Positions 8,562 to 15,104 of a stretch of 64,000 bases of DNA are shown piece after piece. The position numbers and the translations under genes are program-made. Within the stretch, counting starts at the first letter, position 1. The number at the start of each line of letters is the position of its first letter. The notes beneath the pieces were generated by a model. It had not been told where the DNA came from, did no database searches, and was given only the letters and a program-made list of their open reading frames with translations. This DNA comes from a virus, in IMG/VR virus record IMGVR_UViG_3300033802_000252, positions 77,891 to 141,890 of that record; one strand, 5' to 3'.

Positions 8562-8837
8562 ATGAACTTATCAAAGAGTGCAATTAAGAATCAACAGATT
8601 AGGCAGCGAGTTATTGATATTGCTAACTACATAATTGAAAATAACGCTACTGTAAGAGATGTTGCGAAGAAATTTAATATTTCTAAAAGTGCTGCTCATA
8701 TGGATGCTTCTATTCGATTGCAAAAAGTGAATCCATTGCTATACAAGCAAGTGAAAAAAGTATTGGATTATAATGCATCTATAAAGCATATTCGTGGTGG
8801 AGAATCCACAAGGCGATTTCATAAAAACAAAATATAA
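8562..8837 (+). CDS. spoIIID: SpoIIID-like sporulation transcription regulator
   Basis: IANYIIENNATVRDVAKKFNISKSAAHMD...RL..VNP.LY..V..VLDYN..IKHIRGGESTR. Confidence 0.85.
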   Translation: MNLSKSAIKNQQIRQRVIDIANYIIENNATVRDVAKKFNISKSAAHMDASIRLQKVNPLLYKQVKKVLDYNASIKHIRGGESTRRFHKNKI

Positions 8838-10211: not shown

Positions 10212-10481
10212 ATGCCAAGATTAGAAGAGTGGTCAATTGTAAGTATACCGTCCAATCCTTTTCAGGCTCCTGAATTATGGAGTAAAAGGTTGAGTGGAAA
10301 GGTGTATGACGATGATAGATTTGAAGAAGGAAGCATTGTCACAACATCCAGATTGGTAGAGCTGAATCTAAAGAGTGGGTACGCATTAACAAAAAACACA
10401 AGATATGAATTAGGAAGTCCTTCTGATGAATATATAGAATGGCTAACGAGCCAAGGTAAGACCATAGAAGATTACATATAA
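10212..10481 (+). CDS. Conserved hypothetical phage protein
   Basis: RLEEWSIV...PFQAPE...LSGKVYDD.RF..G..V.TS pattern. Confidence 0.7.
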   Translation: MPRLEEWSIVSIPSNPFQAPELWSKRLSGKVYDDDRFEEGSIVTTSRLVELNLKSGYALTKNTRYELGSPSDEYIEWLTSQGKTIEDYI

Positions 10482-10518
10482 TATGATAATTATAAACACT
10501 GGGGGTTATTAACTAAAT

Positions 10519-11505
10519 ATGGATCTATTACTAGGAGGAAGTCCTTGTCAGGGTTTTAGCTTTGCAGGGAAACAATTGAATTTCGAAGATCCAAGAAGCA
10601 AGTTGTTTTTTGATTATGTTAAAGCGTTAAATATATTAAAACCAAAGTACTTTATTTTTGAAAACGTGAAAATGAAAAAAGAATCAGAGCAGATAATAAG
10701 TCAATATTTAGGAGTAGAACCTATTGAAATAAATTCTTCTCTTGTATCTGCTCAAAATAGAAGAAGATTATATTGGACTAATATTCCTGGTGTTGTGCAA
10801 CCGCAAGATAGAGGTATATTACTTAAGGATATAGTGTTAAATGATGCGTTCCCTGTTGTGATACATAATATTTATGGTGGCTTCAAAGAAAAAAAAGTTC
10901 GAGTATTCGAGGGAAAATCACCAACAATTAGAACCGCAGCAGGAGGAGGACATATACCTTATTTTGTTAAAAAAGATTTAATCCACAGCGAAAAAGCAAT
11001 TGAATATATGAATAAAGCTACAAGAGATGGTAGAGCGCATTGGGATTTTGGACATCATTTTGATATAAGAAATCCTAAGAGTGCTACAGTTGTCGCAAAT
11101 TTCTTTAAGGGTGTACCTTATAATGTATTTAAAGATTGGGATTGCATCAGAAAATTCCATCCTGTAGAATGTGAACGACTTCAAACTCTTCCAGACGGAT
11201 ATACTGAAGGAATTAGCAACACTCAACGATACAAGAGCATAGGGAATGGATGGACGGTTGATGTAATTGCTCACATATTATCTTTTATTCCTGATAAAAA
11301 ATTAAATAATGTTGTAAGTCTTTTTGATGGCATCTCGTGTGGTCAAGTTGCTTTAGAACGAGCAGGATTTACATATAAAAATTATTTTGCGTCAGAGATT
11401 GATAAATATGCTATCCATATAACTCAAAAGAATTATCCTAATACAATTCAATTGGGTGATGTCACACAAATTAATTGGGATGAATTTACGAAAAAACATG
11501 AATAA
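10519..11505 (+). CDS. DNA (cytosine-5) methyltransferase, circularly permuted
   Basis: Starts at motif IV (DLLLGGSPCQGFS), then ENV (VI), ECERLQT (IX), GNGW (X), and finally motif I (VSLFDGISCG), II (SEID) and III (GDV) at the C-terminus. Confidence 0.9.
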   Translation: MDLLLGGSPCQGFSFAGKQLNFEDPRSKLFFDYVKALNILKPKYFIFENVKMKKESEQIISQYLGVEPIEINSSLVSAQNRRRLYWTNIPGVVQPQDRGILLKDIVLNDAFPVVIHNIYGGFKEKKVRVFEGKSPTIRTAAGGGHIPYFVKKDLIHSEKAIEYMNKATRDGRAHWDFGHHFDIRNPKSATVVANFFKGVPYNVFKDWDCIRKFHPVECERLQTLPDGYTEGISNTQRYKSIGNGWTVDVIAHILSFIPDKKLNNVVSLFDGISCGQVALERAGFTYKNYFASEIDKYAIHITQKNYPNTIQLGDVTQINWDEFTKKHE

Positions 11506-11750
11506 AATTCGATTTTAAAGCAACAGGAGGATATATATGAAAAACGAAGAACTTATGATTTTGTATAGTAGACTGCAATATGTCTATTGCCAAATGGAAA
11601 TAAAAAACATGTGACAGAAACGGAGTGATCAGCACCAATATTCAGCAGATACATATGATGACGCAATTATTTAGTAATTATGCCTGAATTGATTAAAGGG
11701 TTAAAAAGTGATAAAAAGATTATTTTAAGTAAACAGAGAGGGTAATTTAA

Positions 11751-12816: not shown

Positions 12817-14301
12817 TTGGAGATTAATAAAGCATATCATATAGATTGTGTAGAGGGATTGAAACTATTAGCCGATAACTCAATAGATGCAATCGTGACC
12901 GATCCTCCCTATGAGCTAGGATTTATGGGGAAGAAATGGGATTCAACAGGAATCGCATATAATATTGATATGTGGAAGGAATGTTTGCGTGTCTTGAAAC
13001 CTGGTGGTCATTTGCTTAGTTTCGGGGGAGCGAGGACATATCATAGAATGACTTGTGCAATAGAAGATGCAGGATTTGAAATACGAGATCAAATTATGTG
13101 GATATATTCGCAAGGAATGCCGAAATCTCAAAATATTAAAAAGGCAATTGAAAAGAAGTCAAAATCATCAGAGTTAGCAGAACAATGGTTAGGATGGGAA
13201 TCAAATCTGAAACCAGCTCATGAGCCTATTGTTTTAGCACGTAAGCCACTAAGCGAAAAGACTATAGCAGATAATGTGCTTAAATGGAGCACTGGTGGAT
13301 TAAACATTGATGAATGTAGGATACCAACGGATTGGAAAAATGAGTATTCTGAAAGCTGGTTCAAAAGTGGTAGGGGTAAAACTATAACATGGAATGGTGA
13401 TGAATATAGAACTGATATGACTGCAGGAGATCGAATTAATTCAAAAGGAAGATATCCTGCTAATGTTATATTTGATGAAGAAGCGGCCAAGATGCTTGAT
13501 GAACAAAGTGGTATTTTAAAGAGTGATTCAAATAATGTTAGAAGCAAGATAGGCACATTTTTAGAGCATGGCGGTTTAGGTAAGCCAGGAGACATTCAAG
13601 TTGCCTACGGTGATTCAGGAGGAGCATCTAGATTCTTTTATTGTGCTAAGGCAACAAAGAAAGAACGTAATCAAGGATGTGAAAATTTAATAGTGTGGGA
13701 GAACGTGGAGTTGAACCCACTAATAGGAGAGTTAAGCCGACACCTAAAGGATATATTAGAGTATATGATGCAGAAACAAAAAAATACAGAATGGAACATA
13801 TTATCATTTGGGAAAGAGATTGTGGAAAAATACCCAAGGGATATGATATTCATCACAAAGATGGGGATAAAACTAACAACAATATTGGAAATCTTGAACT
13901 TGTTGATAAACTCACTCACAAAAGAATCCATTCGGGATGTTTTAGAGATGGTAATGGAGAATGGCATAAACCTTGCAGAAAATGTGGAGAAGTTAAACCA
14001 ATTAAAACAGAATACTATAAACGAAGAGATGGAATCTCTTCTTGGTGTCGTAAATGCTGTATTAGCAACGCTATTGAAAATAAAAGAAAAAGGAAGAGTA
14101 GGAAATATACATAGTACAGTAAAGCCATTAAAACTAATGGAATATCTAATTAAGCTTGTTACACCACCTAATGGGATTATTTTAGATCCATTCGCAGGTA
14201 GTGGCACAACATTGTTGACTGCCAAGAATTTAGGGTTTAATTACATAGGATTTGAAAAAGAAGAAGAATACATGGAAATCATAAATAAAAGATTAGCATA
14301 A
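12817..14301 (+). CDS. N6/N4 DNA methyltransferase (beta class) with a ~140 aa insert
   Basis: VTDPPY, SRFFYCAK...H.TVKPLKLMEYLIKLVTPP, DPFAGSG; the insert coincides with the nested HNH gene. Confidence 0.9.
   Translation: MEINKAYHIDCVEGLKLLADNSIDAIVTDPPYELGFMGKKWDSTGIAYNIDMWKECLRVLKPGGHLLSFGGARTYHRMTCAIEDAGFEIRDQIMWIYSQGMPKSQNIKKAIEKKSKSSELAEQWLGWESNLKPAHEPIVLARKPLSEKTIADNVLKWSTGGLNIDECRIPTDWKNEYSESWFKSGRGKTITWNGDEYRTDMTAGDRINSKGRYPANVIFDEEAAKMLDEQSGILKSDSNNVRSKIGTFLEHGGLGKPGDIQVAYGDSGGASRFFYCAKATKKERNQGCENLIVWENVELNPLIGELSRHLKDILEYMMQKQKNTEWNILSFGKEIVEKYPRDMIFITKMGIKLTTILEILNLLINSLTKESIRDVLEMVMENGINLAENVEKLNQLKQNTINEEMESLLGVVNAVLATLLKIKEKGRVGNIHSTVKPLKLMEYLIKLVTPPNGIILDPFAGSGTTLLTAKNLGFNYIGFEKEEEYMEIINKRLA
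13695..14114 (+). CDS. HNH endonuclease nested out of frame within the methyltransferase gene
   Basis: KGYIRV...MEH..IWE...GKIPKGYDIHHKDGDKTNNNIGNLEL....H..IH plus CRKC...WCRKC zinc finger. Confidence 0.85.
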   Translation: MGERGVEPTNRRVKPTPKGYIRVYDAETKKYRMEHIIIWERDCGKIPKGYDIHHKDGDKTNNNIGNLELVDKLTHKRIHSGCFRDGNGEWHKPCRKCGEVKPIKTEYYKRRDGISSWCRKCCISNAIENKRKRKSRKYT

Positions 14302-14366: not shown

Positions 14367-15104
14367 TTGTTTGAAATAAATAAAATATACAATGAAGACT
14401 GTCTAAAAACAATGAGGAGACTGCCAGACGAAAGCGTAGATTTAATAATTGCAGATCCACCCTACTATAAAATTGTTAAAGATGAATGGGATCATCAATG
14501 GGATACAATAGAAGAATGGATTGAGTGGCACAGGGGGTGGTTGGGGGAGTCAAAAAGAGTATTAAAAGACACAGGAAGTTTTTATTATTATGGTGGTGTA
14601 AGAAACATTGCACACATAAAGATTTTATTAGATGAGTATTTTGAATTTAGAAATTGGATTACATGGCACAAGAAAAGGGGTCGAGGAAGCAAAAGAGATT
14701 GGTTGTTTACAAGGGAAGAATTATTATTCTACACCAAATCTAACAACTATAAATTTAAAGTTATATATTCAGACCAAGTTGGAACTTCGAATGCAAGCAA
14801 AAAAAGATTTAGAGAAACTGGCAGAGGGCTAAGACTGTCCAATGTATGGAACGACATATTGGAAATGGGTTGGAACAATACTGGTAAATGTAAAATAAGT
14901 GCTGAAAAACCTGTGAAAATTGGACAGAGGATCATTGAGTCAGCAACGGACGAAGGGGACTTAGTGTATATTCCGTTTGCTGGTAGTGGGAGTGAAATTG
15001 AAGCTTCTATTAATTGCAATAGAAGGTATATAGCAAGTGAAATTAACAATGAATACATAGTGAACATTATTAACCCCAGATTACAAAATAAAAAAACACA
15101 ATAA
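14367..15104 (+). CDS. N6/N4 DNA methyltransferase
   Basis: IIADPPY, EKP, IPFAGSGS. Confidence 0.9.
   Translation: MFEINKIYNEDCLKTMRRLPDESVDLIIADPPYYKIVKDEWDHQWDTIEEWIEWHRGWLGESKRVLKDTGSFYYYGGVRNIAHIKILLDEYFEFRNWITWHKKRGRGSKRDWLFTREELLFYTKSNNYKFKVIYSDQVGTSNASKKRFRETGRGLRLSNVWNDILEMGWNNTGKCKISAEKPVKIGQRIIESATDEGDLVYIPFAGSGSEIEASINCNRRYIASEINNEYIVNIINPRLQNKKTQ

Follow-up and report, generated by a model that had tools for sequence, protein, structure and literature searches.

The window analysed here is a 64,000-nucleotide stretch of the virus record IMGVR_UViG_3300033802_000252 from IMG/VR (positions 77891-141890 of 148,616 bp; the record is about 83% complete). On its plus strand, at 10519-11505, lies a gene whose product (hereafter the query) is a putative C5 DNA methyltransferase with its sequence motifs in a rotated order, motifs IV to X standing ahead of motifs I to III. 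The gene and the features recognised in and before it are the following, in window coordinates, with S-adenosylmethionine abbreviated to AdoMet and the target-recognition domain to TRD:

10501-10505, plus strand: weak Shine-Dalgarno-like GGGGG, 13 nucleotides (nt) ahead of the ATG; in relatives, the corresponding start is preceded at 6-7 nt by TAGGAGG.
10519-11505, plus strand: whole gene of the putative permuted C5 DNA methyltransferase; 328 amino acids (aa) and a TAA stop; PF00145.
10534-10551, plus strand: motif IV GGSPCQ, residues 6-11, with the catalytic Cys10, the chain opening at strand beta-4; from the alignment with M.HhaI 73-123 and a predicted strand at residues 3-7.
10660-10668, plus strand: motif VI ENV, residues 48-50; conservation of at least 98% among 84 permuted proteins.
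10753-10767, plus strand: motif VIII QNRRR, residues 79-83; Q79, R81 and R83 invariant.
10804-11142, plus strand: target-recognition (variable) region, residues ~96-208; from comparison of the relatives' TRDs and a low predicted local distance difference test score (pLDDT).
11149-11205, plus strand: motif IX RKFHPVECERLQTLPDGYT, residues 211-229; from the alignment with M.HhaI 271-315 and conservation.
11224-11280, plus strand: motif X QRYKSIGNGW and its helix, residues 236-254, with GNGW at 242-245; from the M.HhaI alignment and motif scan.
11281-11310, plus strand: junction linker SFIPDKKLNN, residues 255-264; 26-residue X-to-I spacing, bridged by a contig of another sample.
11311-11343, plus strand: motif I VVSLFDGISCG, residues 265-275 (FDGISCG 269-275), the AdoMet-binding loop after beta-1; from the alignment with M.HhaI 4-66 and a predicted strand at 261-268.
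11389-11403, plus strand: motif II ASEID, residues 291-295, Glu293 falling on Glu40 of M.HhaI; from alignment and conservation.
11446-11466, plus strand: motif III IQLGDVT, residues 310-316 (GDV 313-315), Asp314 falling on Asp60 of M.HhaI; from alignment and conservation.
11467-11505, plus strand: short C-terminal tail QINWDEFTKKHE and stop, the former III-to-IV loop; relatives end in ...IDW..F.DRL..IQKVS.

The protein begins with MDLLLGGSPCQ and thus directly at motif IV. An in-frame TAA at 10510-10512, two codons 5' of the start, closes the frame, so that no upstream extension of it is possible, and the preceding open reading frame (ORF) terminates at 10481. The Pfam profile PF00145 matches the protein at 3.5e-40, its 138.8 bits lying above the cut-off of 22; the match falls into two stretches, residues 1-255 corresponding to profile positions 62-320. 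The alignment with M.HhaI consists of three pieces in rotated order: residues 2-52 pair with HhaI 73-123 (motif IV onward), residues 210-254 with 271-315 (motifs IX-X) and residues 257-320 with 4-66 (motifs I-III), SEID being placed on NEWD (Glu40) and GDVTQIN on GDITQVN (Asp60). Along the chain, the motifs follow each other as IV, VI, VIII, TRD, IX, X, a 10-residue linker, I, II and III. The N-terminus lies five residues ahead of G6 of GGSPCQ, the C-terminus 14 residues past D314, and the protein amounts to exactly one unit length with no segment doubled or lost. A PF00145 scan of the whole record returned two pieces only, at window positions 10513-11283 and 11308-11499 (105.2 and 32.4 bits), and hence no second copy of motifs I-III upstream or elsewhere in the 148,616 bp. 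A first-pass annotation of the same DNA had described this motif order, the start at motif IV, the end of the previous gene and the absence of motifs I-III upstream, all of which are borne out.

We conclude, with a probability of roughly 80%, that the gene product is a C5 DNA methyltransferase of the DNMT3-like phage family, intact within one chain, in which a circular permutation has opened the polypeptide between motifs III and IV. It has the marks of the PF00145 family (profile score, Pro-Cys of motif IV, ENV, QxRxR and the AdoMet-site residues), departs from the canonical linear I-to-X order by running from IV to X and then from I to III, and has the layout of a III/IV-break ("Type C") permutant, with termini between III and IV and the old termini fused. 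The linker SFIPDKKLNN is the old C-terminal tail joined to the old N-terminus.

A full-length search returned four close permuted relatives (P0002-4 and P0014, 75-79% identity), many proteins of canonical order, with an identity of about 80% across residues 1-255, and six double enzymes, each a fusion about 560 aa long. The 60-aa I-III fragments of canonical relatives, which MAFFT had misplaced in alignment A1, were dropped, and alignment A2 was used. A second search used the junction alone (residues 205-328) as query, and its matches were grouped into clusters at 90% identity; by motif scan, 78 of the 94 new junction-matching clusters have the IV..X-I order. At least 84 protein clusters show the permuted order, which is far beyond chance. 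The spacing from X to I is 26 residues in all permuted members, despite very different lengths of their variable regions. IMG/VR holds 13 permuted genes (L004-L016), each with in-frame stops upstream and most with a strong TAGGAGG 6-7 nt before a start that reads M-I/V-D-L-L. The ribosome-binding site with which the gene in the window had been credited is present as a weak element, TGGGGG, 13 nt from the ATG; a strong site as in these relatives is lacking.

In a library of representatives at 50% identity, about 11 of the 150 best matches have an uninterrupted junction, and GTDB species genomes that contain it belong to Petroclostridium, a metagenome-assembled genome of Bacillota, Candidatus Flemingiibacterium and Acutalibacter. 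The hosts listed for the permuted family are all Bacillota, which is consistent with the SpoIIID-like gene in the window (see below). Among the top INPHARED isolate-phage matches listed, none is a contiguous X-I gene; these are canonical genes or tandem pairs instead. The permuted family is large, is found in phages and prophages, and appears to be undescribed. The epithet "unusual" that the first-pass annotation gave to the order thus holds for the literature and not for nature: the order is common in metagenomes, and no account of a III/IV break arising in nature came to light in the full-text literature, the coverage of which is thin for subscription journals and REBASE notes.

Some members of the family deviate from the common pattern. 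A GC-rich distant permuted relative (L018:213-1643) is a 476-aa open frame starting with MKKILIGGSPCTHWS, in which the X-to-I spacing is 28 residues and a C-terminal extension reaches more than 100 aa past motif III. The motif IV of the permuted P0312 reads AGFCCQ, Cys-Cys replacing Pro-Cys; to judge from this substitution, the protein may be inactive or use a variant chemistry. Seven loci from several unrelated samples (L006, L007, L008, L010, L013, L014 and L016) share a near-identical block aacaactttca(g/t)ggtggtta..aggaggttcaag within 40 nt upstream of the permuted gene, which could be part of a common prophage backbone or a regulatory element.

For the origin of the order, a core tree was built from permuted and canonical proteins that were re-ordered to I-III + IV-VIII + IX-X, with TRD and junction omitted. 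In this tree, 83 of the 84 permuted proteins, the query among them, form one clade with a support of 97 in the Shimodaira-Hasegawa-like approximate likelihood ratio test (SH-aLRT), and the permuted or canonical state changes twice, compared to about 63 times with shuffled labels. In a subsample of 56 rows, holding all permuted proteins together was not rejected by the approximately unbiased (AU) test (p-AU 0.72) and was better than the free quick tree. The permuted members also have in common the 26-residue spacing, the M-I/V-D-L-L start and the C-terminal tail IDW..F.DRL..IQKVS, despite unrelated TRDs, and a single origin is therefore favoured by the sequences. Three points keep it short of proof. 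The core alignment has just 202 columns, the free tree leaves one permuted protein (P0183) out of the clade, and a split that puts five query-type permuted proteins with the canonical ones has a p-AU of 0.34, in a test that cannot separate a basal from an independent position.

The family and its canonical kin provide insight into how the order may have come about. Seven IMG/VR loci have two full-length methyltransferase genes in tandem, the gap between them ranging from +5 to -49 nt and the overlap frequently being ATGA or TAATG, and two adjoining methyltransferase genes are likewise present in Croceibacter phage P2559Y. Fused I-X-I-X proteins are represented by P0011-13, 16, 18, 20, P0215 and L017. 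In P0156, P0216 and P0005, part of the TRD and motifs IX-X of the first copy stand ahead of a full second copy; P0156 (L143:2501-3880, 459 aa) lies inside an 84-kb contig, is seen on five contigs and retains the Met of the second copy at its junction (..KEKEMNVLSLFDG). Tandem genes, fused doubles and half-trimmed fusions correspond to the stages that would be expected of permutation by duplication. The order would have arisen once, by tandem duplication, in-frame fusion and subsequent trimming at both ends.

Two further observations were made among these sequences. Another PF00145 gene lies 2.2 kb downstream of the P0156 gene. P0256 (L142:76-981), the product of a bounded ORF of 301 aa belonging to this sequence family, contains part of a TRD, then IX, X and I...VIII, and ends about 25 aa past motif VIII; its order is BssHII-like (Type H) and was found on a single 1-kb Logan contig only.

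Permuted and canonical genes are collinear over IV-X, and identity to the query varies along the chain. It amounts to 79% in permuted and 69% in canonical proteins over IV-VIII, and to 77% and 67-73%, respectively, over I-III. Over the TRD, relatives with the same TRD are 72-74% identical, permuted and canonical alike, and the query TRD is unalignable to 78 of the 79 permuted members of other TRD types (39% identity in the remaining one). Over IX-X, identity is 93% in permuted proteins with the same TRD, 76% in those with another TRD and 86% in canonical proteins with the same TRD. The simplest reading of these values is that the TRD and IX-X were swapped as a block by recombination between permuted and canonical genes; after its single origin, the permuted lineage would thus have exchanged this module with relatives of canonical order. 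Alternatively, the sub-lineage of the query might have been permuted independently, from canonical ancestors sharing its TRD and without any TRD recombination. Such an event would agree with the 72-98% identity of its TRD and IX-X to canonical-order proteins, with the many tandem genes able to fuse anew and with the AU test, which did not reject the split just mentioned. We nevertheless regard it as unlikely: the spacing is identical at 26 residues whereas fused doubles differ (e.g., 31 in P0011), the start is shared, the tail is the same in query-type P0002, P0003 and P0014 and in P0161, P0227 and L010 with other TRDs, the query is nearer to permuted than to canonical proteins in both IV-VIII and I-III, and the free tree nests it within the 83-member clade.

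The genomic context of the gene bears on its function. It is part of a co-directional block of thymidine kinase (7900), a SpoIIID-like gene (8562), a Gam-like gene (8942), three small unknown genes, the methyltransferase and an unknown gene (11751), followed by two genes for class-beta amino-methyltransferases (12817-14301 and 14367-15104; phrog_67). Three orphan methyltransferase genes are thereby found within 5 kb of the phage genome, and a scan of ten proteins around the gene gave no match to a restriction enzyme. The SpoIIID-like gene (8562-8837) codes for a 91-aa homologue of this sporulation regulator (phrog_11726, 9e-24) within an early or DNA-metabolism block of the phage, and may point to a host among the spore-forming Bacillota. 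The 245-nt gap 3' of the methyltransferase gene contains, at 11538-11615, an ORF of 25 codons that is preceded by a strong AGGAGG at a distance of 7 nt. A scan for promoters and terminators around the gene found none above shuffled sequences.

By analogy, the three orphan methyltransferases of this large phage suggest self-protection against host restriction. The permuted enzyme would methylate the C5 of cytosine in DNA and, together with its two neighbours, would shield the phage DNA from the restriction of its Bacillota host. It counts against this proposal that its basis is the context and general knowledge of orphan phage methyltransferases. A role other than protection of phage DNA, for example on RNA as in Dnmt2 or in the control of gene expression in host or phage, would be in line with the missing match to a cognate nuclease among the ten proteins. 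This we consider improbable, as the best matches in sequence and fold are DNA enzymes (DRM, DNMT3A/B and M.HhaI), the match to Dnmt2 is weak (~1e-5), and the gene adjoins two more DNA methyltransferase genes in a phage DNA-metabolism block. The combination of a hypervariable TRD with a conserved core is, moreover, the pattern of sequence-specific DNA enzymes under restriction pressure.

Comparisons of the query with 11 permuted relatives gave proportions of nonsynonymous differences (pN) of 0.09-0.30 versus proportions of synonymous differences (pS) of 0.54-0.96, the latter near or at saturation. The low pN and high pS are found in each of the segments IV-VIII, IX-X and linker + I-III. We interpret the excess of pS in the last of these as an indication that the relocated segment is constrained like the rest of the protein. 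Residues of motifs I, II, III, IV, VI, VIII, IX and X are conserved to at least 98% among the 84 permuted proteins, with the strings FDGxSCG, SE.D, GD, GGSPCQ, ENV, Q.R.R and GNGW, and G6, G7, S8, P9 and C10 are invariant in the alignment. The enzyme is intact in these respects and presumably active.

A structure prediction, proposed as a check by the first-pass annotation, is in agreement with this view. The AlphaFold2 (AF2) model has a predicted template modelling score (pTM) of 0.73 and a core pLDDT of ~80-96, and its order of strands and helices is that of a class-I methyltransferase opening at beta-4. In the TRD, the pLDDT is below 50 over much of residues 110-210, so that the target sequence is unreadable from the model. 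With VIA-align, residues 41-328 of the model superpose on the crystal structure of NtDRM (4onq_A) over 211 residues, across the junction into I-III (Z 16.9, root-mean-square deviation 3.0 Å), residues 1-263 on M.HhaI 72-325 (Z 13.2) and residues 1-263/287 on DNMT3A/B (Z 13.8). Foldseek gave TM-scores of 0.4-0.5, its alignment being sequential and the TRD poorly modelled. The predicted chain rebuilds the ordinary methyltransferase fold alone. In the model, it would start at beta-4 with the catalytic PCQ loop and proceed through V-VIII and the TRD to the helices of IX-X. The 10-residue linker would then lead to beta-1 with motif I, beta-2 with motif II and beta-3 with motif III, so that the AdoMet-binding half is the last part to be synthesised and folds back to lie next to the catalytic half, yielding an ordinary class-I fold.

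Some points speak against a fully working enzyme, and raise the alternative that the ORF is a non-working remnant of two tandem methyltransferase genes after a deletion. Tandem and part-trimmed forms do occur in the family, and the ribosome-binding site of the query copy is weak. The engineered permutant closest to this break was weak: cp122M.MpeI, whose site is the third in sequence order and is taken as the III/IV break, was weak in vivo and undetectable on gels (PMC5944983), and the III/IV topology is therefore not automatically benign. Still, a dead remnant is very improbable, given that pN is far under a near-saturated pS in all three conserved segments across the 11 relatives, that every catalytic and AdoMet-binding residue is kept in the query and in at least 98% of the 84 relatives, that neither frameshift nor internal stop is present in 10519-11505, and that the unit length is exact, with neither duplication nor loss.

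An antisense ORF of 98 aa lies inside the methyltransferase gene, on the minus strand at 10978-11274. In 12 family members, no second reading frame is conserved; alternative frames of at least 60 aa vary in frame and place, and this antisense ORF is for that reason probably due to chance.

The junction near 11290 was recovered from independent data. The identical protein is called on seven contigs, and four runs of phyllosphere metagenomes contain the stretch; no RNA data set is listed among those containing it, and runs X1 and X2, though indexed as containing it, gave no contig, from which nothing is concluded. One of the four runs, X4, carries no flag as a possible source of the record; a single Logan contig from it spans 10300-11352 with 0 differences and bridges the X-to-I junction and motif I, and a second contig runs on to 11600. 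P0161, a protein of 283 aa with the same order, is encoded in the complete chromosome of Petroclostridium sp. X23, within a prophage replication module with PD-(D/E)XK, an Enc34-type single-stranded DNA-binding protein, family A polymerase, VapE and SNF2. Although the record is a metagenomic assembly and tandem methyltransferase genes as in the relatives could mislead an assembler, a chimeric join of two methyltransferase reads or tandem copies, the assembly artefact that the first-pass annotation named as a possible refutation, has next to no chance of being correct and is refuted for practical purposes by the seven contigs, the X4 contig and the recurrence of the junction, its 26-residue spacing unchanged, in one finished chromosome of a bacterium, 13 IMG/VR loci and about 84 clusters at 68-82% identity.

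C5 methyltransferases are a textbook case of fixed motif order. The 2018 survey of REBASE searched 20,677 C5 entries for motif X before motif I and found 27, each of them with its break in the variable region (Albert et al. 2018, PMC5944983). These natural permutants constitute Type H, similar to M.BssHII and M.Alw26I, which bears out what the first-pass annotation stated of the known permutants. The survey thus recognised one natural alternative order and read it as evolution favouring two intact domains; a specialist review of 2020 still knew a single alternative 5-methylcytosine order (PMC7544214). The engineered series of the survey covered every inter-motif segment, and breaks at III/IV and nearby retain activity; other orders that are workable in the laboratory seem not to occur in nature, for which weaker AdoMet binding was proposed as the reason (PMC5944983). 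The family described here is a second natural order, cut between the AdoMet-binding and the catalytic halves of the catalytic domain. The III/IV order was previously known from engineered enzymes only and, to judge from the sequences, is natural and conserved here. The coexisting stages of the family constitute a natural test bed for permutation by duplication, the evidence for which has so far come mainly from laboratory evolution, and designed or split methyltransferases could be built upon the conserved core with its freely swapped TRD modules.

The nearest known enzymes are canonical DNMT3-like C5 methyltransferases of phages and prophages, such as P0007 and P0063 of Siminovitchia fordii, which carry the Joint Genome Institute name "DNA (cytosine-5)-methyltransferase 3A". 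They are about 80% identical to the query over IV-X including the TRD and 62-83% over I-III, and share its motifs and its phage or prophage setting. In contrast to the query, in which I-III follow X, they have motif I first and end after X. Evolved M.HaeIII permutants are reportedly the work of Peisajovich, Rockah and Tawfik (Nat Genet 2006), said to be reference 14 of the 2018 survey. As far as the survey relates that work, these permutants also began between II and IV (via PMC5944983, ref. 14), and group 1 among them shares with the engineered Type C the same termini in the III/IV loop and old termini fused without a linker. Type C enzymes are laboratory-made, and the M.MpeI version is weak and poorly produced; the query, by contrast, belongs to a natural, widespread order under purifying selection. 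The Type H enzymes (M.BssHII, M.Alw26I, M2.Eco31I, M.Esp3I and M2.BsaI) are natural and have X joined to I, as in the query. Their N-terminus, however, lies in the variable region and their order is IX-X-I-VIII (PMC5944983), whereas the query begins at motif IV, has an internal TRD and carries IV-VIII, TRD and IX-X before I-III.

Class-beta amino-methyltransferases, in whose definition motif IV is followed by the TRD and this by motif I (PMC7544214), have the same block order as the query, with the catalytic part followed by the TRD and the AdoMet-binding part. They differ in their protein family, since a DPPY-type motif IV, (D/N/S)PP(Y/F/W), is used by them for methylation of an exocyclic N, while the motif IV of the query is GGSPCQ with the Pro-Cys of ring-carbon methyltransferases, and its Pfam matches are to PF00145 only.

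The DRM enzymes of plants are eukaryotic, carry UBA domains and are broken between motifs V and VI. DRM2/NtDRM ranks first among PDB matches, in sequence across the junction (query 211-323 versus chain 175-297, E 8e-19) and in fold, and its X-to-I linker differs from that of the query by a 2-residue insertion only. The order in DRM is VI-X followed by I-V, whereas the query has IV-V at its N-terminus and ends after III, so that the X-to-I junction is all that the two orders have in common. It is conceivable, if quite unlikely, that the X-to-I fusions of phage DNMT3-like enzymes and of plant DRM go back to one event, or to events of one kind, DRM being derived from such a tandem-fused gene by trimming at V/VI. 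If true, a family of bacterial viruses would keep alive every stage of the rearrangement behind a eukaryotic de novo methyltransferase.

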